Below, in pieces: positions 39,320-53,749 of a stretch of DNA of 64,000 nt. The notes under the pieces were generated by a model that saw nothing but the letters and a program-made list of their open reading frames with translations, did not search any database and was not told the DNA's origin. Made by a program: the position numbers and the translations under genes. Position 1 is the first letter of the stretch. Each line of letters starts with the position of its first letter. Source of the stretch: Dehalococcoidia bacterium (lineage in GTDB: Bacteria > Chloroflexota > Dehalococcoidia > UBA2979); the NCBI GenBank assembly GCA_965207415.1, contig CBDBMD010000003.1, positions 2,480,991-2,544,990 on the forward strand, written 5' to 3'.

Positions 39320-41728
39320 TCAGCGTGCGAGGCGGCGCAGCCACAGGCGGCGCAGCAGCAGCTCCCGGAAGAGCCGGTTGCGCAGGCGGCGGTAGAGCGC
39401 GTCGGCGCGGCGCACCGCCGGATCGTCCTCGTCACCCTCGTCCGTCGCCGGCGCCCGATCGGCGGCGGCGGCAGGCGCGCCGTAGCGCTCGCGCGTGAAG
39501 GCATCGGCGAGGATCTCGACGGGCTCCTCGCTCTCGAGGTCGCGCTTCAGTCCGGCGGCGGCCTCGAGCGGCGTGCGGTTGGTGGGGGCCGGGATGCCCG
39601 CCCAGCCGGAGATCCGCTGCACCCTGGCCCAGCGCGCCGTGGCCGGGCTCAGCCCTCGATCGGGGAAGGCCCACGCTCCGCGCACGATCAAGAAGAGCAT
39701 GGCGACAACAGCGAGCGCGGCTATCGCCCAGCCCGCGATCAGCCCGAGCGGCGCCCAGAGCGATCCGTCACCGCCGATGAGGTCTCCCCGAGGTCCGCCC
39801 ACGCCCAGCGGTTCCAGACTCTGCTCCAGCAGTTCCGCCAGCTCCAGCGCCGCGATCGCGTCCTCGGTGCTGCCCTCCGGAACTTCGAAGATGCCGGTTC
39901 CTCGCCCGGTCCGGCTAACCAGCTCGCGGACCGGCGCCGGGTTGAACTCCACCCAGCCGTAGCCGGGGAAGAAGACCTCCGGCCACGCCCACGAGTCCTT
40001 CTCGCTCAGCACGAACGCCTCCGACTCCCGGCTGAACGAGGTCGAGTCGAGCGCGAATCCGACGGCAATGCGCGCGGGGATGCCGAGCGTGCGCAGCAGC
40101 ACCACCATCGCCGAGGCGTGATGGTCGAAGTAGCCCTCGCGGCTCTCGAAGAGGAACCAGTCAATCGGATCGCGGCGCGGAGGCGGGTCCGAAACCTTCA
40201 GGCTGAACGGGTAGTTCTCGCGCAGGTAGCGCTCGACCCGGAAGGCGGCGAGGTATGGGGCATCCTGCTCCGTTGCGATGCTCGCGGCCAGTTCACCCAC
40301 CCGAGGCGGAAGATTGTCGGGTATCTGGAGATAGCGCTCCGTCACCCAGGCCGGGTAGTCGGCGCCCGCGGCCATGAGCGCGTCCACGCCCGCGACGGAG
40401 ATGGAGCCCACCGCCGTGTAGCTCTCCCCGTTGCCGACACGGCTGCTCGGCTGGAGTCCGACCACGTCGCTGGGCGAGGCTCCCGTCAGGAACTCGGCCT
40501 CGACATCGGTCGCGAGCGGCTCGCCGACCGTCAGCAGACGGCGATCGCTGAGCGGCGACTCAACGTGGACCTCGACGGCCACGAGGCTCCGCTGCTGCGC
40601 CCTCGTCGCGGGCGTGCCGAAGCGCGCCGCCTCGACCGTGATCGCCGGCGGGTCGACCAGCTCGGTGTCGGAGAGCCGCCAGCCACCGCGTTCGTAGCGA
40701 TCGAAGACGTAGGCACGCAGGTACGCGAGGCCCCCTGTCTCGGCGGAGACGACGTACATCGTCTCGTCGTCGAGGTTGACGCGGCCCTGCAGCGGCAGGG
40801 CGCCCTCGAACTGGTGGATCAGCTGTCCGTGCTTGCCGTCGATCCCGATGAAGACCTGCCCGAGCGGCTGGATGCGATCGGTGATCGGGCGGACCGCGTT
40901 GCCCCATGCCCCGGCTGCGGGTTCCCAGCCGTCGCCGACAGGCACGATCCAGGCGAAGAGGATCAGCCCCGCCGCCACCCACCCGCCGGCGTGCAGCACC
41001 TGCAGCGAGAGCCAGCGAGGCAGCGCGATCGCCTGGCCTCGCCAGCCGCGAACCGTGCGCAACAGGTGGATGCGCGTGAACAGCAGGATCGCCGCGAAGA
41101 GGAAGATCACGAATTCGAAGGCCGGCTTGCCCGGCAGGTAGGAGATGTTCGTCAGCAGCGCGAACCCGCCCGGCAGCAGCGCCAGCCAGGGGTTGCGCCA
41201 GCGGAACACCGCCCAGGACGCGAGGTACGGGACGAGCCAGACGGCGAAGACCAGCAGCAAGACGAACGGCAACGGGTCCGTGGAGACGCCGCCCGTGACG
41301 AGCGCGCCCAGCCAGTCGCCCATCCGGCCCCACAGATCGCCCCAGCGCGTCGCGATCCCGAGCCCCGGCGCAAACGGGTCGGAGAGCTCCATCGTGTGCA
41401 TCACCATCGCCGTCGACGTCACGACGCCGAGGGCGCCGCCAGCGAGGAACGCCGTCCATGGCCGCGTCCCCAGCAGCGCCAGCAGCGCGCCGGCTGCAAG
41501 CCCGATCGCGGCCGCCACCGGCAGCGCTGGCATCTCGTCGACCCAGTTCGCGCGAGCAATCGAGAAGGCCACGGAGAACTGGGCGATCGCGAGCAGCGCG
41601 AAACTGATCCAGTCTTCCCAGAAGCGCCAGGCCGTCACGCTGCGCGGATCGGCTTCGGCCAGCAGATCGCGCAAGGCGCGGGAACTGAACCCCGCCTGCG
41701 CCGGAGTGCTGTCGGAGAGGGCGCTCAT
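39320..41728 (-). CDS. transglutaminase-like (TgpA/DUF3488-type) polytopic membrane protein, apparently catalytically inactive
   Basis: 802 aa. N-terminal multi-TM DUF3488-like region, a transglutaminase-core-like segment REGYFDHHASAMVVLLRTLGIPARIAVGF, and DSWAWPEVFFPGYGWVEFNPAP. Relative to the canonical C/H/D triad motifs (from memory) all three positions read F/W/N. C-terminal TM helix plus basic tail. Confidence 0.7.
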   Translation of the reverse strand: MSALSDSTPAQAGFSSRALRDLLAEADPRSVTAWRFWEDWISFALLAIAQFSVAFSIARANWVDEMPALPVAAAIGLAAGALLALLGTRPWTAFLAGGALGVVTSTAMVMHTMELSDPFAPGLGIATRWGDLWGRMGDWLGALVTGGVSTDPLPFVLLLVFAVWLVPYLASWAVFRWRNPWLALLPGGFALLTNISYLPGKPAFEFVIFLFAAILLFTRIHLLRTVRGWRGQAIALPRWLSLQVLHAGGWVAAGLILFAWIVPVGDGWEPAAGAWGNAVRPITDRIQPLGQVFIGIDGKHGQLIHQFEGALPLQGRVNLDDETMYVVSAETGGLAYLRAYVFDRYERGGWRLSDTELVDPPAITVEAARFGTPATRAQQRSLVAVEVHVESPLSDRRLLTVGEPLATDVEAEFLTGASPSDVVGLQPSSRVGNGESYTAVGSISVAGVDALMAAGADYPAWVTERYLQIPDNLPPRVGELAASIATEQDAPYLAAFRVERYLRENYPFSLKVSDPPPRRDPIDWFLFESREGYFDHHASAMVVLLRTLGIPARIAVGFALDSTSFSRESEAFVLSEKDSWAWPEVFFPGYGWVEFNPAPVRELVSRTGRGTGIFEVPEGSTEDAIAALELAELLEQSLEPLGVGGPRGDLIGGDGSLWAPLGLIAGWAIAALAVVAMLFLIVRGAWAFPDRGLSPATARWARVQRISGWAGIPAPTNRTPLEAAAGLKRDLESEEPVEILADAFTRERYGAPAAAADRAPATDEGDEDDPAVRRADALYRRLRNRLFRELLLRRLWLRRLAR

Positions 41729-42981
41729 GTGTAGACGCCCCCTCGATCGCCGACGCCGACGGACGAGAGCACCTGCACGAGGTCGTCCTGGCGCTTCACG
41801 GTGTAGGTGTAGACGCCGCTCGAGGCGAGCGTGCCGTAGACATCGAGCGAGCTGGTCGTCGCGCCGAACGTCTCACCCTCGAGCAGCACCGCCGCGACTT
41901 TCACCCCGCGCGCGGAGAGCGACATCAGCGCCAGCGCCCAGTCGTCGCGCGGCGAGGGCGTCACGGCGATCACGGTGGTGTGCCGCCCGAACTTGCGGGA
42001 CTCCTCGAGCAGCAACTGTGCGAGCGAGACGTCGCCCACGGCACGGGCCAGCGCCAGCAGCTCCAGCAGGCGCGTGTAGTGGTTGCCGCCGCGGCTCGGA
42101 TCGTTGACGCGCAGGTCGTCGTCGTAGGCGATCATGCCGACGGAGCGGTTCTGGGTGATGAAGTAGCGCGCGATCGAGGCGGCGACCATCACGGCCGCCT
42201 CCTCGGTGCCGTCGTCGTCCTCGCCGGTGTGGACCGCCTCCTCGAGGTCGAGCAGGACCCAGATGTCGGAGGCGGGATCGAGCTCGAAGAGCTTCACCAT
42301 CAGGTTGCCGGTGCGGGCGGTGGCCGGCCAGTGCACGCGGCTGAGCGAGTCGCCCGCCTCGTAGGCGCGCAGGCCGGCGACGTTGGGCGTGACGTTGTGC
42401 GTGCGCCTGCGGAAGCGCCCGTCTCCCGGCAGGTTCGCCGGCGGCACGTGCAGCCTCGGCAGCTCGGGTGCGCTCGGGTAGACGAGCACCTCCGAGCGCT
42501 CGCCGAAGGTGCGCGACATACGGAAGAACCCGAACGGGTCCGTCGCCGTCACCGTCACCGGGCCCAGCTCGTAGAGCCCGCGCCGCCGCGCCGCCGTCTC
42601 GTAGCGCCAGACGTCGACCCCGCGCCGGCCGAGCGTGAGCACCCGGTTCGTCACATGGTCCGGCAACGTCGAGTGGTCATGGACCTCGAGCCAGACCTTG
42701 GGCAGCCAGGAGCGGGAGCGCACAATCACGCGCCCGTGAAAGGCCCGCCCGCGCGAGACGCGCTGGTCGCGGCGCCGCACCTCCACCTCGATGCCGCGGA
42801 TCATCGAGCGGTTCCAGAAGTAGAGCAGCGGGATCGCGAGCGCGATCAGGTAGGCGAAGCGGAACAGCAGCCAGAACCCGGTGGCGCTGGCGACGGCGAG
42901 GGTGAAGAGCGCGACGGCAATCGCCGCCGCCACGTTGGGCCGGCGCGCGGCGAGGCTTGCGGCCCGCCACAGCGCGCTCAT
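41725..42981 (-). CDS. DUF58 domain protein (second copy, MoxR partner)
   Basis: Two N-terminal TM helices and a conserved LRAYEAGDSLSRVHWPATARTG segment (equivalent to DDxRxIDW). Stop overlaps the downstream transglutaminase-like start (ATGA). Confidence 0.75.
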   Translation of the reverse strand: MSALWRAASLAARRPNVAAAIAVALFTLAVASATGFWLLFRFAYLIALAIPLLYFWNRSMIRGIEVEVRRRDQRVSRGRAFHGRVIVRSRSWLPKVWLEVHDHSTLPDHVTNRVLTLGRRGVDVWRYETAARRRGLYELGPVTVTATDPFGFFRMSRTFGERSEVLVYPSAPELPRLHVPPANLPGDGRFRRRTHNVTPNVAGLRAYEAGDSLSRVHWPATARTGNLMVKLFELDPASDIWVLLDLEEAVHTGEDDDGTEEAAVMVAASIARYFITQNRSVGMIAYDDDLRVNDPSRGGNHYTRLLELLALARAVGDVSLAQLLLEESRKFGRHTTVIAVTPSPRDDWALALMSLSARGVKVAAVLLEGETFGATTSSLDVYGTLASSGVYTYTVKRQDDLVQVLSSVGVGDRGGVYT

Positions 42982-42984
42982 GGC

Positions 42985-43980
42985 TCAGGCGCCGCCGCGC
43001 GCCCGCGCACCCGGCACCGGCGTGCGCTCGATGCACTCGTCGACAATCTGCGCGCTCTCGATGTTCCGCACGCGCGCGGCCGGGCTCACGATCACGCGGT
43101 GCCCCAGCGTCGGGTAGGCCAGCCGCTTGATGTCGTCGGGCTGCACGAAGTCGCGCCCGTCGAGCATGGCGTAGGCCTGCGCGGCCCGCATCAGCGCCAG
43201 CGACCCGCGCGGCGAGGCGCCCAGGTAGACGCTCTCGTGCTCCCGCGTCGCGTTCACCATCGTCACGATGTACTGCTTGATCAGCGGGTCGATGTAGACC
43301 CCGCGCGTGGCCTGCTGCAACTCGATCACCTCCTCGGCGGAAGTGACCTGGTCGAGCGATTCGATCGGGTGCTGCTCTTGCTGCGCGTCCATCACCAGCA
43401 CCTCGTCGGTGGGGTTCGGATAGCCGAGGCGGACACGCATCAGGAAGCGGTCGAGTTGCGCCTCGGGCAGCGGGAACGTGCCCTCGTACTCGATCGGGTT
43501 CTGCGTGGCGAGGACCATGAACGGCTCGGGCAGCTTGCGCGTCACGCCGTCGACGGTGGCCTGGCGCTCCTCCATCGCCTCCAGCAGTGCGGACTGGGTC
43601 TTCGGCGTGGCGCGGTTGATCTCGTCCGTGAGCACGATCTGCGACATCACCGGGCCGGGCCGGAATTCGAACTCGCTACTCGCCTGGTTGTATACCGCAA
43701 CGCCCGTCACGTCCGAGGGCAGCAGGTCCGGCGTGAACTGGATGCGCTGGAAGCTGCACCCCGTCGAGCGCGCGAGCGCCCTCGCCAGCATCGTCTTGCC
43801 AACACCGGGGACGTCCTCGAGCAGCAGGTGCCCCCGGCAGAGCAGTGTGACGAGCGCGAGGCGCCCCTCCTCTGCTTTGCCGATGATCACGCGTTCGATG
43901 TTTTCGAGGATGCGCTCGGAGACTTGGCGTGGATCTTCCACGTCGGCCCTCCCAACCCTTCGCGGCCGGGCTCGCCCCAT
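42985..43980 (-). CDS. MoxR-family AAA+ ATPase (second copy)
   Basis: Walker [27 protein letters not shown] and [28 protein letters not shown]. Start MGRARPRR at 43980 preferred over the track start at 44175. Confidence 0.85.
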
Positions 43981-44130
43981 CTCGCCGTCAGGCGTGGTGG
44001 CACAGGGGAGGCCGACGCAGCGCGCGCCAGTATAGCAGCGCGCTCCGCGGCGCTCTCCCCGCGCGCCGTGGCGTGCAACCCATAATCGCGTCCTGCGGAT
44101 AGGATGTAGGGACTCCCGGCGAGGAGGCGC

Positions 44131-45495
44131 GTGGCCGAAGACCAGACCCCTCCGCCTCGGCGCTCCGCGCGCCATGTCAGCGCCGCGAGCCTCCTGACCG
44201 CGGTGGTCGTGATGCTGCTCGTCGCCGCGGCCACCGCCGCACTGGTCCGTACCCTCAACGAGGAGCCTGCGGAACCGCCGGCGGTCCGGATCACTCCGCT
44301 CACCCGCACGGCCACCCCCGCCCCGACTCCGTCGCCATCGCCAACCCCGACGGCGACGCCGACCCCGGCCTCGACGCCTTCGCCCACACCGACACCCTCG
44401 CCATCGCCGACGGCTCCGCCGACGCCCTCACCAACACCGACAGCGACGCCGTCACCGACGCCAACGGCCACGCCCACACCGACCCCAACGCCTTCCCCCA
44501 CCCCTACTCCCACTCCCACTCCCACCCCTACTCCCACTCCCACTCCCACTCCCACCCCTACTCCCACTCCCACTCCCACTCCTACGCCGACACCCACGCC
44601 GACCCCAACACCCACGCCGACTCCAACCCCGACCCCGACACCAACCCCCGTCCCCGGCGAAGTTGCAGCGAACCCGGAGCGCGTCCAAACGGGCCACACC
44701 CTCGTCGTGCAGGCCTCCGCCGCCGGTTCCGTCCTGGCGCGGATCGAGTTCCGAGGCACCTCGTACTCCCTGGTGCCGGTCGCTGATGGGTTCTGGGGCG
44801 TCTTCGCGATCCCGGTGGACGCCGAACCGGGCGAGGAGTCCGTGCGCGTCACGTTCCACGACGCCAACCGCGCACAGATCAGCGAGGCGGACGCGACCTA
44901 CGTCGTGGTCGAGATACCACGGGACGTCGAGCACATCACGTTGTCGGAGGAGGCAGCGGCGCTCCTGAACGAGGAGGATGCTCAACGCGAGGCGGATCTG
45001 CGCGCCGAGCAGTTCGCGCAATCCGACCCCGATCCGGCGTGGACGGAGCCGTTCCTGCAACCCGTGCCCGACGCGCAGGTCACCGCACCGTTCGGCAGCG
45101 GCCGCTCCTACAACGGCGGCCCAGTGACCAGCTTCCACAGCGGCCTCGACTACGGCGGGAACGAGGGCGACCCGGTGCTGGCCGCCGCGCCAGGCCGCGT
45201 CAGCTGGACCGGCGCGATGCCGCTCCGCGGCAACAGCGTGATCATCGACCACGGCGCCGGCGTGAAGAGCGGCTACCACCACCTCTCACGCATCGACGTC
45301 GCCGTCGATGGCGCCGTGGCGGCGGGCGACCAGATCGGGGCGGTCGGCTCGACCGGCGTCTCAACCGGTCCACACCTGCACTGGGAGGTCAGCATTCACG
45401 GCGTGAACGTCGATCCGCTCGCCTGGCTCTTCAACTCGTTCCTGGCGAGCGGGGGCTTCAGCCCTCCAACGCAGCCAGAGTCAGAGCAAGAGTGA
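44131..45495 (+). CDS. M23 family metallopeptidase with N-terminal TM anchor and long Thr/Pro/Ser repeat linker
   Basis: M23 motifs HSGLDYGG and [15 protein letters not shown] helix [19 protein letters not shown], then about 110 aa of (PT)n/(TPS)n. Confidence 0.8.
44290..44650 (+). repeat. coding tandem repeat: (ACNCCN)n, including nested (ACTCCC)n / 24-30 nt units, encoding Pro-Thr repeats
   Basis: Direct inspection: cccacccctactcccactcccact repeated three times with internal ACTCCC hexamers (about 44505-44590), flanked by degenerate ACGCCGAC-type units. Confidence 0.8.
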
Positions 45496-46189
45496 CGATC
45501 GCCGCCGTCTCCACGCGCAGCCTGCGAGGTCCAAGACTCACCGGCAGCGCACCCTCCCCGATCAGCCGCTCGCGCTCCTCGGGCGTCCAGCCGCCCTCCG
45601 GCCCGATGTAGATCGCCACGGCGAGCGGCACGGGCGAGAAGCCGGCGAGCGCCTCGGCGACGGTCCGGGCCGCGCCGGGGTCGGCGATCAGCCGCGGCGC
45701 TCCGGCGGGAGGCTCCTCGCCGAACGAGGGCAGCGAGGCGCGTCCGCACTGCTCGGCCGCCTCGCTGGCGATCCGCCGCCAGCGCTCGACGCGCCCCTCG
45801 CCCGGCTGCATCACCGCGCGGTCGCTCGCCAGCGGCGTGATCGCCGCCACGCCGAGCTCCGTCGCCTTTTCCACGATCCAGTCGCCGCGCTGCCCTCGAG
45901 GGAACGCGCAGAGCAGCGTGACGGCGACCGGCGGCTCAGGCAGCGCCTCGAGCGGCTCACCGATCGCCAACCTGACCCCCTCCGCCGCGGCGGCGGCAAC
46001 GGTTGCGCTCCACTCTCCGCCGCTGCCATCGAAGACGGCGAGGCCGTCGCCCGGCCGCAGCCGCAGCACGCTGCGCAGCCGGTGCGACTGCGCGTCATCG
46101 AGGCGCACCTCGACGCCAGGCTCGAGCCGCGCGCCCGGCACGCAGAGCCGCCTCACGGGCTCGCCTTCCCCGCGCCCACCGCGCACCAC
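45458..46189 (-). CDS. rsmE: 16S rRNA (uracil1498-N3)-methyltransferase RsmE
   Basis: An N-terminal PUA-like region followed by a SPOUT-type domain; about 240 aa. Position after prmA as in dnaJ-prmA-rsmE operons. The exact start is uncertain. Confidence 0.7.
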
Positions 46190-47097
46190 TCCTCGTCCTG
46201 CTCAACCGCCACATCCTCGAGGCCCGCGCCGCGCGCGGCCGCCAGCACCTCGGAGACCCGATCGGCCATGAAGCCGCTGAGGACCAGCCGCCCGCCCGGA
46301 CGCAGCGCGCGCGCCATCGCCGGCAGCAGCTCGCACACCACGCCCGAGGAGATGTTCGCCGCCACGAAGTCGTACTCGTCCACCGCGCCGCGCTCCGGGT
46401 CGAGCGAGCCTCGCAGTGCCTGCACGCTGCCCTCAAGGCCGTTGCGCCGCACGTTTTCGCGTGCTGCTTCCACCGCGTCCGGATCGCTGTCGAGCGCGTC
46501 GACGCGGGAGGCGCCCAGCCGCGCCGCCGCAAGCGCGAGCACGCCGGACCCCGTCCCGAGGTCGAGCACCACGTCGCCGGGCGCGCACTCGCGCTCGATC
46601 GCCGCGAGGCAGAGCCGGGTCGTCGGGTGCTGGCCGGTGCCGAACGCCTGCCCCGGATCGAGGCTGATCGCCAGCGCCTCGCCCTCCCCGGCGGGCTCCC
46701 AGGACGGGTGCACCACCAGCCGCCCGATGTGCAGCGTCGTGAAGTGCTCGCGCCAGAGCGCGGACCAGTCGAGGTCCTCGACGGGGCGATAGCGCAGCCG
46801 GGGCAGCGGGCCGCGCAACGGCAGCGCGGCCAGCCGCCGCCGCACCACGCGGCGCTCGCGGGGCGCCAGCGGGGCGGGCAGGAACGCGCGCACGGTGGCG
46901 TCGGCCGGCTCGACCGTGTAAGCGAACTCGCGCTCGTCCGAGGTCTGGATGCGCGGCTCGAGGGCGACCGCACCCGCGGTCATCGCGCCGAGCGCGTCCG
47001 CGACCAGCTCGGCGTCGGAGAGCGGCAGCCGAACCGTCAGCTCGACCCAGGCAGCGGAGCCGCCGGGAGCGGCGCGTGCGTTCGCGCCCACCGTCAT
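46153..47097 (-). CDS. prmA: ribosomal protein L11 methyltransferase PrmA
   Basis: SAM-binding motif VVLDLGTGSGVLALAAARLGA, the typical PrmA N-terminal domain WVELTV and about 314 aa length. Confidence 0.85.
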   Translation of the reverse strand: MTVGANARAAPGGSAAWVELTVRLPLSDAELVADALGAMTAGAVALEPRIQTSDEREFAYTVEPADATVRAFLPAPLAPRERRVVRRRLAALPLRGPLPRLRYRPVEDLDWSALWREHFTTLHIGRLVVHPSWEPAGEGEALAISLDPGQAFGTGQHPTTRLCLAAIERECAPGDVVLDLGTGSGVLALAAARLGASRVDALDSDPDAVEAARENVRRNGLEGSVQALRGSLDPERGAVDEYDFVAANISSGVVCELLPAMARALRPGGRLVLSGFMADRVSEVLAAARGAGLEDVAVEQDEEWCAVGAGKASP

Positions 47098-48222: not shown

Positions 48223-48282
48223 CCGCTCAGTCTACCGAAGAGTCGGGTAGAGCGCGTGAGCGGCGACGGTCGAGCGCCGTGA

Positions 48283-49320
48283 TCACAGCGCACCGCGCAC
48301 ATAGCGAGTCGCGAGGTACTCCTCGACCCAGTTGGTGGTGCTGCGCCACTGGCCGTCGGCGCCACGCGTTGCCTGCAGTCGCCCACGGATCGCGGCCGTC
48401 CGCAGCGCCGAGTGCGAGATCCGCGCACCTGCCAGCGCAGCGAGCGGCACAAGCCGGCCGGGCCCCGCCACCGCCGGAATGACGAACTTGTAGAGGTTGT
48501 CGAGGATCGCCCGCGCAAGCAGTTCGCCGAGCGGACCAATGTCTCCTCGGTCGGCCTTTCGCAGCGCGGCCAGATATGTGCTGCGCTGGTTCTTGTAGAT
48601 GATCGCCGGCGGATAGCCGAGCCGGACGAGCAGCAGGTTGAGGACCAGGCGGCCCGCCCTTCCGTTGCCATCAAGGAAGGGGTGAATCTGCTCGAACCGG
48701 CAGTGCAGCGCAGCGACAGTCTCCGGGAAGTGCGCGGCGCCAGGCTCCAGGCGGTTCACGTCGGCGATCCAGTCAGCCATCAACGCCGGTACATCGGTCC
48801 ATGCGGGGGGCGTCATGCCCTCCGGGAACGGCTGGACCTCGTGTCGCCGGTACGCCCCCGGCCGCTCTGCCGAATCGGCGACCGGATGGGGCGCGACATC
48901 CCAGACGGGTTCCATCGCAACCTCATGAATGCGCCTGACCTCGGTCAGCGAGATCCACTCGCCGCCGGACCACTCGCCCGGCTCGATCGCCTGGCCGTAG
49001 ACCCAGTCGGCGGCGTTCGCGTAGCCGCGGACTTCCATGTACTCCGCAAGCTGCTTGTCGCCGACAGCGCGGCCTTCCGCAAGCAGGGCCTCGACCTGCT
49101 TCAGGACGAGCGTATTGCCCTCGATCGCGGTGGAGTGGTGAGCCTCCTCGAACCAGATGCCGCGCCAGATGTCGGACGCTTCCAGGCGGTTGGGGAGTCC
49201 CCCCATGCGCGTCCACAGTTCGCTGATCTGCGTCTCGAGCCGGGCGTAGATGGCAGCGCGAGGCGGGCGTCCGCGCCGCACCGCCCGGCCCTCCCGAAGT
49301 TGATCAGGTTCACGCCTCAT
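48283..49320 (-). CDS. Fic-domain protein (class II: N-terminal inhibitory helix + Fic core), inserted between dnaK and dnaJ
   Basis: Fic active-site motif HPFLDGNGRAGRLVLN (HxFx[D/E]GNGRxxR). An upstream inhibitory-helix motif STAIEGN fits (S/T)xxxE(G/N). 345 aa. Confidence 0.85.
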   Translation of the reverse strand: MRREPDQLREGRAVRRGRPPRAAIYARLETQISELWTRMGGLPNRLEASDIWRGIWFEEAHHSTAIEGNTLVLKQVEALLAEGRAVGDKQLAEYMEVRGYANAADWVYGQAIEPGEWSGGEWISLTEVRRIHEVAMEPVWDVAPHPVADSAERPGAYRRHEVQPFPEGMTPPAWTDVPALMADWIADVNRLEPGAAHFPETVAALHCRFEQIHPFLDGNGRAGRLVLNLLLVRLGYPPAIIYKNQRSTYLAALRKADRGDIGPLGELLARAILDNLYKFVIPAVAGPGRLVPLAALAGARISHSALRTAAIRGRLQATRGADGQWRSTTNWVEEYLATRYVRGAL

Positions 49321-49329
49321 AAATTGAAC

Positions 49330-49356
49330 CGTACACTTTCACCACGGAAGTGTACG
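49330..49356 (-). promoter_or_regulatory. hairpin CGTACACTT-N9-AAGTGTACG immediately upstream of the fic start codon
   Basis: A 9-bp perfect inverted repeat ending 10 nt before the fic ATG, followed on the minus strand by GTTCAATTT. It shares the CACTTTCAC/GTGAAAGTG core and a CGTGG loop with the dnaK terminator hairpin. Confidence 0.35.
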
Positions 49357-49365
49357 TCAGAGCCC

Positions 49366-49412
49366 CTGAAAAAGAAACCGCGCACTTTCACCGTGGCGAG
49401 TGAAAGTGCGCG
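49366..49412 (-). terminator. Rho-independent terminator after dnaK: CGCGCACTTTCAC-N8-GTGAAAGTGCGCG followed by GTTTCTTTTTCAG on the minus strand
   Basis: A 13-bp perfect stem with a U-rich tract on the transcribed (minus) strand, 44 nt after the dnaK stop. Confidence 0.6.
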
Positions 49413-49455
49413 TTACGCCCGGTCCGAATTGTGCCGCACACTTTCGCGCGCGACC

Positions 49456-51360
<1,905 letters not shown>

Positions 51361-51430: not shown

Positions 51431-52054
51431 CTACTCCGCGGCCTGGCCGCCATCGGCTGACCCGGCCGCGCCGCTGCCGACCACCACCTGGGCCGGCCGC
51501 AGCACGTAGTTCTCGATGCGGTAGCCCTCGCGCACGAGGGCGACGATCTGTCCCTCCGGACCCGGCGCGGACGAGACCGCCTCGTGCACCAGCGGATCGA
51601 ACGCCTCGCCTTCGCCGCCGATCTCCTCGACGCCGGCGCCGGCCAACATCTCCTTGAACTTGCGCTCCACCAGCCGGATGCCCTCGATCCACTGGTCCTC
51701 GGCGAGCGCGCCATCAACCGAGGTCAGGGCGCGGCTCAGGTCGTCGAGCGGCGGCAGACAGCGCGCGATCGTCTCGGCGAGCTGCGCTCGCGCGCGTTCC
51801 TTCCAGCGCTCCTCGGTGCGGCGCCGGAAGTTCTGCAGATCGGCAGCCGCGCGGGCGTGGCGATCCGTCAGTTCCGCGACTTCCGCCTCGAGGGCGGCGA
51901 TGCGCTCGGCGTCGCTCGACGCCTCGTCGGCAGCAGCATCCTCGGCCGGCGCTGCTGTTTCCCCGGCGCTGTCTCCTTCAAGAGGCACGTTGTCTTGCTC
52001 CTGGTTGTTCGTCGTTGAGTCCTGCGGGCGTCCGGTGGCCCGGGCGTCAGCCAT
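51431..52054 (-). CDS. grpE: nucleotide exchange factor GrpE
   Basis: An acidic N-terminus, a coiled-coil (ALEAEVAELTDRHARAAADLQNFRRR) and a C-terminal beta-domain. Overlaps the hrcA stop. Confidence 0.85.
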   Translation of the reverse strand: MADARATGRPQDSTTNNQEQDNVPLEGDSAGETAAPAEDAAADEASSDAERIAALEAEVAELTDRHARAAADLQNFRRRTEERWKERARAQLAETIARCLPPLDDLSRALTSVDGALAEDQWIEGIRLVERKFKEMLAGAGVEEIGGEGEAFDPLVHEAVSSAPGPEGQIVALVREGYRIENYVLRPAQVVVGSGAAGSADGGQAAE

Positions 52055-53087: not shown

Positions 53088-53114
53088 TTAGCACTCTCAT
53101 GGGGAGAGTGCTAA
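53088..53114. promoter_or_regulatory. CIRCE operator TTAGCACTC-N9-GAGTGCTAA (perfect match to consensus)
   Basis: Read directly at 53088-53114: ttagcactc tcatgggga gagtgctaa. On the minus strand, -10 TAAAAT (53123-53128) and -35 TTGACC (53147-53152) with an 18-nt spacer lie just upstream. Confidence 0.85.
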
Positions 53115-53122
53115 CACACTGG

Positions 53123-53152
53123 ATTTTAGCGGCCAGACGCCCGACTGGTCAA
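53123..53152 (-). promoter_or_regulatory. hrcA promoter (-35 TTGACC, 18 nt spacer, -10 TAAAAT) immediately upstream of CIRCE
   Basis: Hexamers read on the minus strand. The geometry places the transcription start at or next to CIRCE. Confidence 0.55.
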
Positions 53153-53176
53153 CGCTCGCACGGGCCCGGAGAGCGC

Positions 53177-53749
53177 ATGGACCGAGATTCGGACTCCCAG
53201 ACCGCCGCCGCGCCCGACGCCGCCGATCCCGCCCGCGCGGACGAGGCCCGCGACGCCTTCTCCGAGCTCTATGAGGCACACGCGACCCGCGTCTACCGCT
53301 ACCTGCTCTCCCGCACCAGCAGCGTCAGCGACGCCGAGGAGCTGACCTCGCGCACGTTCACCAACGCCTTCGCCAGCCTCGGCAGCTACCGCGGGCGCGG
53401 CAAGTTCGAGTCCTGGCTGATGACCATCGCGCACAACCTGCTGGCCAACTGGTACCGCGACCGTGGCCGCAGGCCGCAGGCCGCGCCGCTCGACGAGGCG
53501 CTCGCCGTGCCCTCGGACGCGCCGGGGCCGGAGTCGGCGCTCGAAACCATCGAGGAGACGCAGCGGGTGCGGGAGGCGGCGGCGGCGCTCGCGCCCGACC
53601 GCCAGCGCCTGATCACGCTCAAGTACGTCGACGGCCTCACGAACGCCGAGATCGGGCGCATCCTCGGCCGCAGCGAGGGCGCCGTGAAGGCCCTCCACCA
53701 CCGCACGCTGCGCCAGCTCGCCCAGGCGCTCGCCGCCGACTCGGGGTAG
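53177..53749 (+). CDS. ECF (sigma-70 family) RNA polymerase sigma factor
   Basis: Region 2 FSELYEAHATRVYRYL....AEELTSRTF and region 4 ITLKYVDGLTNAEIGRILGRSEGAVKALHHRTLRQL. The start at 53177 is only 25 nt from the hrcA -35 element. Confidence 0.7.
   Translation: MDRDSDSQTAAAPDAADPARADEARDAFSELYEAHATRVYRYLLSRTSSVSDAEELTSRTFTNAFASLGSYRGRGKFESWLMTIAHNLLANWYRDRGRRPQAAPLDEALAVPSDAPGPESALETIEETQRVREAAAALAPDRQRLITLKYVDGLTNAEIGRILGRSEGAVKALHHRTLRQLAQALAADSG

Follow-up and report, generated by a model that had tools for sequence, protein, structure and literature searches.

Introduction

FICD (also called HYPE) requires tetratricopeptide repeat (TPR) motifs to AMPylate BiP, as these motifs bind the nucleotide-binding domain and linker of Hsp70 and confer specificity (PMC8065156), and BiP AMPylation by FICD has been described in a meeting report as a metazoan-specific adaptation (PMC10939069). 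Among bacterial Fic enzymes, CccR of Yersinia binds the promoter of its own gene, which it represses, SoFic of Shewanella attaches as a dimer to the 100 bp that precede its start codon and has EF-Tu as its target (bioRxiv 10.64898/2026.07.09.737422), and CbFic2 of Coxiella switches between AMPylation and de-AMPylation upon DNA binding (PMC10628234). Here we describe a class II Fic gene, fic, that lies between dnaK and dnaJ in a 64-kb stretch of ~70% G+C DNA from a Dehalococcoidia bacterium (contig CBDBMD010000003.1); the whole stretch is referred to as the window, and the protein together with its homologues as the window family. To our knowledge, most chromosomal bacterial Fic enzymes are without a known physiological target.

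The dnaK operon of the Firmicute type, heptacistronic in Bacillus subtilis, begins hrcA-grpE-dnaK-dnaJ-prmA-rsmE and is controlled by HrcA through the operator CIRCE (controlling inverted repeat of chaperone expression). Such operons can hold non-canonical genes, as in Thermus thermophilus, where the product of the small dafA gene assembles DnaK with DnaJ. An initial annotation of the window proposed, by analogy with FICD, that its Fic protein is a dedicated AMPylator and de-AMPylator of the DnaK system, co-expressed with it under heat shock, and regarded the arrangement as undescribed. We likewise found no paper on this arrangement and none that links a bacterial Fic protein to DnaK. The reading of the locus that we favor, with little more than even confidence, is that fic belongs to a self-contained, autoregulated module encoding an FICD-like class II enzyme, which was inserted a single time into the dnaK-dnaJ spacer and whose position beside dnaK is incidental.

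Results

The window encodes a class II Fic protein with an FICD-like core

The minus strand of the window carries a run of seven genes in the order hrcA-grpE-dnaK-fic-dnaJ-prmA-rsmE, which was confirmed by Pfam and NCBIfam matches that identify the flanking genes above curated thresholds. The features of fic itself are as follows.

48283-49320, minus strand: fic open reading frame (ORF), 345 aa from ATG, probably 332 aa from the GTG at 49281
49289-49295, minus strand: Shine-Dalgarno-like GGGAGGG, 7 nt 5' of the GTG at 49281, read from the sequence
49258-49278, minus strand: N-terminal AT-hook-like basic motif RRGRPPR, by motif resemblance only
49114-49134, minus strand: inhibitory motif STAIEGN, of the form (S/T)xxxE(G/N), aa 63-69, with its Glu codon at 49122-49120
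48649-48684, minus strand: Fic active-site motif HPFLDGNGRAGR, aa 213-224, read from the sequence
48283-48480, minus strand: C-terminal domain of ~60 aa, strand-helix-helix-strand-strand-helix, a putative MerR/excisionase-type helix-turn-helix (HTH) domain with a predicted local distance difference test score (pLDDT) of 76-92 in the full-length model

The 345-aa ORF and its canonical Fic motif, both noted in the initial annotation, hold up in a hidden Markov model comparison, as the product matches the Pfam Fic family PF02661 with E=4.3e-18 and 66.4 bits (cut-off 24) over positions 1-93 of the 93-position domain. Translation probably starts at the GTG at 49281, which yields 332 aa, because GGGAGGG lies 7 nt upstream of it and conservation at the protein level begins at RRGRPP; the 332-aa gene models of homologues begin at the equivalent GTG. 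Near-identical copies of fic have been given four different starts in public records (298, 307, 332 and 345 aa), of which the 298- and 307-aa calls remove the conserved RRGRPP N-terminus.

An alignment of 52 homologues (alignment A2) shows that the H, F, D, G, second G and both R residues of the Fic motif are invariant and its P, L and N nearly so, with variation at the two positions that separate the Arg residues; the catalytic consensus HxFx(D/E)GNGRxxR is intact in the window protein. STAIEGN is invariant in the same homologues, is located in the same chain N-terminal to the Fic core, and its Glu aligns in the profile alignment with the inhibitory Glu of the FICD sequence TVAIEGNTL, in agreement with its earlier assignment as a class II inhibitory segment. 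The G, R, P and R columns of RRGRPPR are also invariant (G17, R18, P19 and R21 in alignment A1; G4, R5, P6 and R8 in A2). The window protein is a class II Fic enzyme in which all of the catalytic and inhibitory residues are present. In the AlphaFold2 model, pLDDT falls below 50 where the inhibitory motif lies, at residues 53-56 of the 332-aa form. A class I arrangement of the FicT/FicA type was not found, as there is no conserved small neighboring ORF among the flanks and the inhibitory motif resides in the same chain.

Human FICD is the best solved match to the family profile (E=3.6e-32 over ~258 positions), ahead of every bacterial Fic structure. It is also the top Foldseek match (E=1e-11, template modeling (TM) score 0.60, 28% identity) to the full-length AlphaFold2 model (pLDDT 82.7, predicted TM score 0.79), and is followed among the matches listed by BT_2513 and then by Fic-1 of C. 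elegans. The similarity extends to PGKSLEE of FICD, the segment of the dimer-relay residues K256 and L258, which aligns with a conserved GDKxLxE in the window family, where the corresponding residues are K89 and L91. Among the bacterial Fic proteins that were found, the window family is the most FICD-like. TPR motifs were detected neither by Pfam nor in the model, in which ~45 residues forming one helix precede the inhibitory helix. The analogy to FICD drawn in the initial annotation is therefore upheld for the core, the inhibitory Glu and the fold, but not for the TPR motifs that FICD needs to act on BiP.

The C-terminal domain gives weak matches to HTH_17 in 3 of 20 family members (best E=0.0075), and its top Foldseek matches are BldC, TnrA, MerR and Xis, all of which are non-significant (E>1; pLDDT 63 for the model of the domain alone). 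The NCBIfam SoFic equivalog NF046030 reaches 30.2 bits, where its cut-off is 550, and covers 31 residues only, such that the protein is not a SoFic orthologue, and in the PDB profile search SoFic matches over no more than 33 residues, those surrounding the Fic motif. We also note a non-significant Foldseek match between the model of the C-terminal domain and DafA in the Thermus Hsp70-Hsp40-DafA complex (9dvi_S, E=5.4, Foldseek probability 0.08), which is almost certainly due to chance and is mentioned only because dafA, too, is an additional gene in a dnaK operon. The window family is best described as an FICD-like core joined to an AT-hook-like N-terminus and a small HTH-like C-terminus, a variant of the known enzymes that combine a Fic core with a DNA-binding domain.

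The family is large (over 5,600 database clusters at E<1e-5) and is widespread in Actinomycetota and Chloroflexota, with abundant representation in soil members of these phyla. Its best 120 matches are 69-98% identical and come from Chloroflexota and several orders of Actinomycetota; they are annotated only as 'Fic family protein' or 'fido' in their sources, and no cultured host was found, the cluster members all being metagenome-assembled genomes (MAGs). Within the clade in which fic is linked to dnaK, the ratio of nonsynonymous to synonymous substitution rates (dN/dS) is 0.11-0.18, indicative of purifying selection, and fic evolves about as slowly as dnaJ. We conclude that this is an uncharacterized and very conserved Fic family, whose target is likely a highly conserved cellular protein. 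Homologues on plasmids with more than 40% identity were not found, and an origin from a plasmid was rejected because the only plasmid homologues fall below that value.

Linkage of fic to dnaK is confined to one lineage

To place the locus in its family, one genome per species was scanned, which yielded 80 fic loci. Six of these have dnaK upstream and dnaJ downstream of fic, each of them a Dehalococcoidia MAG with a DnaK 78-99% identical to that of the window; three further metagenomic relatives share the dnaK-fic-dnaJ order, with Fic proteins that are 74-78% identical. Overall, the order is kept in at least ten related Dehalococcoidia genomes (Fic identity 74-98%, DnaJ identity down to ~71-74%). 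Elsewhere in the orthologous family (77 loci, 65-76% identity), dnaK, dnaJ, grpE and hrcA are absent within ~6 kb of fic in every case; these loci consist of 74 of the 80 that were scanned, the L086/L087 entry from an Egibacteraceae relative, and L091 and L092 from a metagenome pattern scan. The conservation of the neighborhood is thus real, and the insertion is not specific to a strain, yet it belongs to a single lineage and is not a property of the whole family. The dedicated role in the DnaK system that had been proposed for the protein is not supported by this distribution.

The 80 scanned loci represent 48 different flanking contexts, and clustering of all of their flanking ORFs revealed no shared partner gene beyond synteny at the level of orders, as exemplified by the acyl-CoA carboxylase and sulfate assimilation genes located beside fic in Solirubrobacterales. 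Elsewhere in Dehalococcoidia, fic is positioned between a ThuA-like gene and ilvD. The next-closest relatives by DnaJ (65-67% identity) lack fic at this site, and their dnaK is followed directly by dnaJ across a spacer of 93-173 nt that contains a GC-rich hairpin. These sisters otherwise share the synteny of the clade, which includes genes for Lactamase_B_3, an extracytoplasmic function (ECF) sigma factor, hrcA, grpE, dnaK, dnaJ, prmA, rsmE, an M23 peptidase, MoxR and DUF58. As the sister genomes have the same flanks but no fic there, the gene entered once, in an ancestor of the clade, and was passed on vertically from then on; the divergences of fic, dnaK and dnaJ run parallel across the clade. 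The adjacency of fic to dnaK is most likely incidental.

A palindromic unit accompanies fic

The fic genes are accompanied by a palindromic unit of ~42 nt, which consists of an 11-nt arm (AAAGTGTWCGG), a 20-nt spacer starting with TNCAWTT, and the inverted arm (CCGWACACTTT). One to four copies occur in tandem 5' of fic, and sometimes one is found 3' of it. In the window, the units and the hairpin that they form are positioned as follows.

49399-49448, minus strand: palindromic unit 1 (GAAAGTGTGCGG-CACAATT-N13-CGCGCACTTTC), 10 nt after the dnaK stop
49369-49412, minus strand: intrinsic-terminator-like hairpin in which the reverse arm of unit 1 pairs with the forward arm of unit 2, and after which GTTTCTTTTT follows
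49293-49355, minus strand: proximal palindrome (CGTACACTTCC-GTG-GTGAAAGTGTACG) and unit 3 (GAAAGTGTACGG-TTCAATT...), directly 5' of fic

The sequence of the arms varies by lineage, but their complementarity is retained, with arms of GTGTACGG / CCGTACAC in the window group, GTCTACGC / GCGTAGAC in the L008 group, GTGTATGG / CCATACAC in Tepidiformaceae and GTGTTCGG / CCGAACAC in Actinomycetota. When 31 units are aligned, the pair formed by positions 10 and 41 is GC in 22 and CG in 9, and the pair formed by positions 12 and 39 is AU in 14, UA in 9 and GC in 3. The covariation score of the arms was reached by no shuffle; few independent events underlie these pair counts.

A covariance model of the unit (R1) was searched against 1.06 Mb made up of the window and 89 loci. 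The 166 matches cluster near fic, either in the ~270 nt 5' of its start or in the 170 nt that follow its stop; the exceptions are three outliers located 0.5-2.7 kb upstream (L022, L091 and L092). Matches are present at 78 of the 87 fic loci, spanning several phyla and dozens of contexts, and at none of the three fic-less dnaK-dnaJ loci. The only two in the 64-kb window are at 49399-49448 (E=3e-9) and 49293-49343 (E=0.04). In the region of the proximal palindrome and unit 3, the motif is matched exactly at 49322-49340, and a hairpin is present in the predicted fold. A pattern scan of a metagenome collection that was blind to fic returned two matches, both adjoining a fic homologue, the low number being due to a pattern that was too narrow. 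The association between fic and the palindrome is exclusive, and this fic-specific cis-element constitutes a new and solid by-product of the analysis. No Rfam family matches the dnaK-fic spacer, either in a local search by E-value or in a search of the whole window at gathering thresholds.

Several features suggest how the unit may act. In Actinomycetota, the proximal unit contains TACAAT, TACAGT or TACACT 6-10 nt 5' of the ATG or GTG, as is characteristic of promoters for leaderless mRNAs, and its last half-site lies inside the first codons in differing reading frames, such that the constraint is at the level of nucleotides and not of protein. The palindromic unit is probably the operator and promoter of fic. 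It is also conceivable that the AT-hook-like RRGRPPR reads the AT-rich TNCAWTT of the unit, which in these genomes is set in DNA of 70% G+C. The putative recognition helix ALRxAAxRG correlates perfectly with arm sequence, but this correlation is fully confounded with phylogeny and was not used as evidence. LexA, HAIR and RecA-NDp boxes were rejected as identities of the palindrome because of misfits in spacing and sequence, as were integron attC and Xer/dif-type sites because of misfits in core sequence and spacer length. Units of the fic type are additionally found between fic and dnaJ at L008 (6998-7047), L084 (7069-7118) and L085 (7059-7166); a factor that binds the palindromic units could also affect dnaJ expression at these loci.

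The dnaK-fic spacer and the regulation of the operon

The terminator-like hairpin lies within the 135-nt spacer between dnaK and fic, where the initial annotation made no mention of it. Its 14-bp stem, in which 8 pairs are GC, closes a 6-nt loop, a T-run follows, and the hairpin is present in the minimum-free-energy fold. The T-run is kept in the closest relatives (L004 and L076) and is absent from more distant members of the clade. From its sequence, we infer that the hairpin insulates fic from transcription of dnaK. The remaining genes and control elements of the operon are listed below.

53123-53152, minus strand: sigma-70-like promoter of the hrcA-grpE-dnaK unit, TTGACC-18-TAAAAT, 10 of 12 matches
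53088-53114, minus strand: CIRCE operator (HrcA site) 5' of hrcA, perfect TTAGCACTC-N9-GAGTGCTAA
52047-53060, minus strand: hrcA, Pfam/NCBIfam above cut-off
51431-52054, minus strand: grpE, Pfam/NCBIfam above cut-off
49456-51360, minus strand: dnaK, Pfam/NCBIfam above cut-off
48223-48282, minus strand: fic-dnaJ spacer, with TAGACT at 48234-48229, 9 nt 5' of the dnaJ ATG
47101-48219/48222, minus strand: dnaJ, Pfam/NCBIfam above cut-off
46153-47097, minus strand: prmA, Pfam/NCBIfam above cut-off
45458-46189, minus strand: rsmE, Pfam/NCBIfam above cut-off

The perfect CIRCE 5' of hrcA, the only match in 64 kb (0.01 expected), bears out the earlier placement of the operon behind this element. It is kept in 10 of 10 clade loci and only upstream of hrcA, and a second CIRCE near fic or dnaJ was not found in any clade locus even when up to 4 mismatches were allowed. 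Together with the T-run terminator and the cis-element that belongs to fic, this argues against the proposal that fic is co-expressed with dnaK under heat shock. A TAnACT element is located 8-10 nt 5' of the dnaJ ATG in 10 of 10 fic-carrying clade loci and in 2 of 3 fic-less sister loci (L088 and L090), which suggests that this box is dnaJ's own promoter and that dnaJ-prmA-rsmE has a very short leader. Because the box is kept with or without fic, the site of insertion would lie where two transcription units meet, a position at which an inserted gene is readily tolerated.

Other genes surround the operon. A gene for an ECF-type sigma-70 factor (53099-53749, plus strand) is divergent from hrcA, and its start region overlaps the CIRCE and promoter, an arrangement that is kept in related loci. 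On the other side, genes for a MoxR-type AAA ATPase (42985-44175, minus strand) and a DUF58 protein (41725-42981, minus strand) adjoin the operon; this pair is syntenic in all related Dehalococcoidia loci, whether fic is present or not, and at L081, L082 and L084 a transglutaminase-core gene follows DUF58. An M23 peptidase-like protein is encoded at 44131-45495 (plus strand), and homologous loci show LysM and Peptidase_M23 domains. It contains a long Thr-Pro/Ser-Pro low-complexity linker, with imperfect tandem repeats of 6 to 48 nt at 44323-44649 that produce a strong local GC skew.

Discussion

Our preferred reading builds on the observed gene and its motifs, the FICD-like fold, the synteny within a single lineage, the exclusive association of fic with the palindromes and the purifying selection. 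The palindromes and fic would travel together as a self-contained module, which would have entered the spacer between the CIRCE-controlled hrcA-grpE-dnaK genes and dnaJ-prmA-rsmE once, in the ancestor of one Dehalococcoidia lineage. By analogy with FICD, the Fic protein probably both adds and removes AMP, the switch between the two being Glu67 (Glu54 in the 332-aa form). Because of the precedents set by CccR, SoFic and CbFic2, we infer that the protein, probably as a dimer, binds its own palindromes through its C-terminal HTH-like domain and RRGRPPR, and that fic expression is autoregulated, as it is for CccR and as is indicated for SoFic. The HTH-like domains would be positioned on arms that are about three helical turns apart, and the AT-hook-like motif on the AT-rich TNCAWTT. 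DNA binding might also gate the activity of the Fic core, and in the window the palindromes would in addition form the terminator that shields fic from transcription of dnaK.

Some of the data weigh against this reading. DNA binding by the window protein is a prediction, the AT-hook assignment depends on a motif of 7 residues, and the C-terminal domain had no significant match in Pfam, NCBIfam or PDB profile searches. Shielding from dnaK is not uniform, as in clade members of the L085 type the dnaK-fic spacer comprises one hairpin that lacks a T-run. In the window, no consensus promoter was found 5' of fic, whose transcription may therefore rely on read-through from dnaK, and no terminator was found in the fic-dnaJ spacer, so co-transcription of fic with dnaJ is likely. 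The palindromes could act at the level of RNA instead of as DNA bound by protein. Finally, it is improbable for any one event that a module lands in a chaperone operon, and that the enzyme which did so is of the most FICD-like bacterial type remains a coincidence.

It is unlikely, in our estimation, that the Fic protein is a dedicated regulator of the DnaK system that is co-expressed with it and reversibly AMPylates DnaK, DnaJ or GrpE. The dnaK-fic-dnaJ order has been kept in its lineage across a substantial divergence, no PDB structure matches better than that of FICD, conservation extends to the inhibitory Glu and to the K and L of the dimer relay, and a very conserved target would suit the very high conservation of the family. 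Such a role is also consistent with the likely co-transcription of fic with the gene of the J-protein and with the fic-type units found 5' of dnaJ at three loci. A candidate modification site can even be named, as the DnaK segment DKATG aligns with DKGTG of BiP (a segment entered by hand), which places T488 on BiP Thr518; this alignment is not diagnostic, however, because Thr is common at that position in DnaK proteins. In FICD-type enzymes, the residue that is AMPylated and de-AMPylated is a Thr in loop L7,8 of the Hsp70 substrate-binding domain. The synteny with dnaK carries little independent weight, because the locus was selected for its neighbor. Opposed to this role are the lack of chaperone genes at all 77 other family loci, the sister genomes without fic at the site, the terminator between dnaK and fic, the restriction of CIRCE to the hrcA end of the operon, and the cis-element that fic brings with it at most of its loci. 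Moreover, the TPR motifs that are essential for FICD to act on BiP are missing (PMC8065156), and the characterized bacterial class II enzymes that combine Fic and HTH domains modify EF-Tu, FtsZ or histone H3, not Hsp70. A function of the protein on DnaK is a weak possibility.

We consider it similarly improbable that the palindromic units act as RNA, through competing hairpins or attenuation in a transcript that reads through from dnaK, so that the heat-shock transcript would extend into fic only conditionally, and that the C-terminal domain does not bind DNA. The topology of the spacer resembles an attenuator, as two pairings are open to the reverse arm of unit 1: one with the forward arm of the same unit, and one with that of unit 2, which yields the terminator. 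Compensatory changes preserve the complementarity of the arms, the units show a preferred orientation relative to fic, those located after the fic stop between convergent genes fit a role as terminators, and the missing consensus promoter in the window is in keeping with expression by read-through. The Actinomycetota loci speak against an RNA role, because with a TAnnnT box 6-10 nt 5' of the start codon the 5' arm of the proximal unit would stay untranscribed. The arms are near-perfect palindromes in which G-U pairs are not in excess over A-C mismatches, both being too few to separate a role as RNA from one as DNA, no Rfam family matches the units, and HTH-bearing Fic enzymes bind their own promoters.

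A broader proposal, that the window family is the prokaryotic counterpart of FICD, AMPylates T488 of DnaK without TPR motifs under the control of its DNA-bound or free state, and was captured into the chaperone operon, seems to us decidedly doubtful. Least probable of all is a single-protein module for growth arrest or phage defense, of the SoFic type or with toxin and antitoxin in one chain, that landed in the dnaK operon by chance: although PADLOC reports PDC-S04 (E=3.3e-26) and SoFic (E=4e-25), Veyron et al. proposed that glutamate-bearing Fic proteins may be toxin and antitoxin in one protein, and the family occurs in many differing genomic contexts, the PADLOC matches reflect the generic Fic core only and the SoFic equivalog score is far below its cut-off, close plasmid homologues are lacking, and 65-98% identity across phyla, a dN/dS of ~0.15, single-copy occurrence, housekeeping neighborhoods and order-level synteny are unlike genes for defense, which turn over rapidly.

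Should the family nevertheless prove to act on DnaK, the regulation of Hsp70 by AMPylation would be older than the metazoa. Even under the likelier reading, of an autoregulated module beside dnaK by accident, the analysis defines a new and very conserved Fic family together with its probable, fic-only operator, which would offer a clean system in which to study the coupling of DNA binding and AMPylation. The locus also cautions that function should not be read from a neighborhood seen in a single lineage.

Compared with known systems, the locus combines features of several. The gene order and the CIRCE 5' of hrcA are those of the Firmicute-type dnaK operon, whose uninterrupted order is seen in the sister genomes, whereas the window has an extra gene with its own cis-element and terminator between dnaK and dnaJ. 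A precedent for an extra dnaK-operon gene that acts on the chaperones is provided by dafA; its product shares neither sequence, fold nor chemistry with the window protein, and dafA is as a rule linked to dnaK, whereas the window family normally is not. Among bacterial structures, the next-best match after FICD is BT_2513 of Bacteroides thetaiotaomicron (PDB 3CUC; profile E=2.9e-23, Foldseek E=1.6e-9), which is also of class II, but the identity is only 24-25% and linkage to dnaK is not known for BT_2513. Like FICD, the window protein has the inhibitory context AIEGNTL, the same Fic motif and the conserved dimer-relay K and L, but it lacks both the TPR motifs and a membrane anchor, and in their stead has an AT-hook-like N-terminus and the ~60-aa HTH-like C-terminus. 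With its putative C-terminal HTH domain, this architecture resembles that of CccR, SoFic and CbFic2, in which an N-terminal helix, a Fic core with an N-terminal inhibitory Glu and a C-terminal domain of DNA-binding type follow one another, and the binding of CccR and SoFic to their own promoters parallels the palindromic array at the 5' end of the window fic. It differs in that the C-terminal domain is ~60 aa instead of ~150 aa and resembles MerR/excisionase proteins and not the SoFic_C type, and FtsZ, EF-Tu and histone H3, the targets of those winged-HTH Fic enzymes, are not established for the window family.

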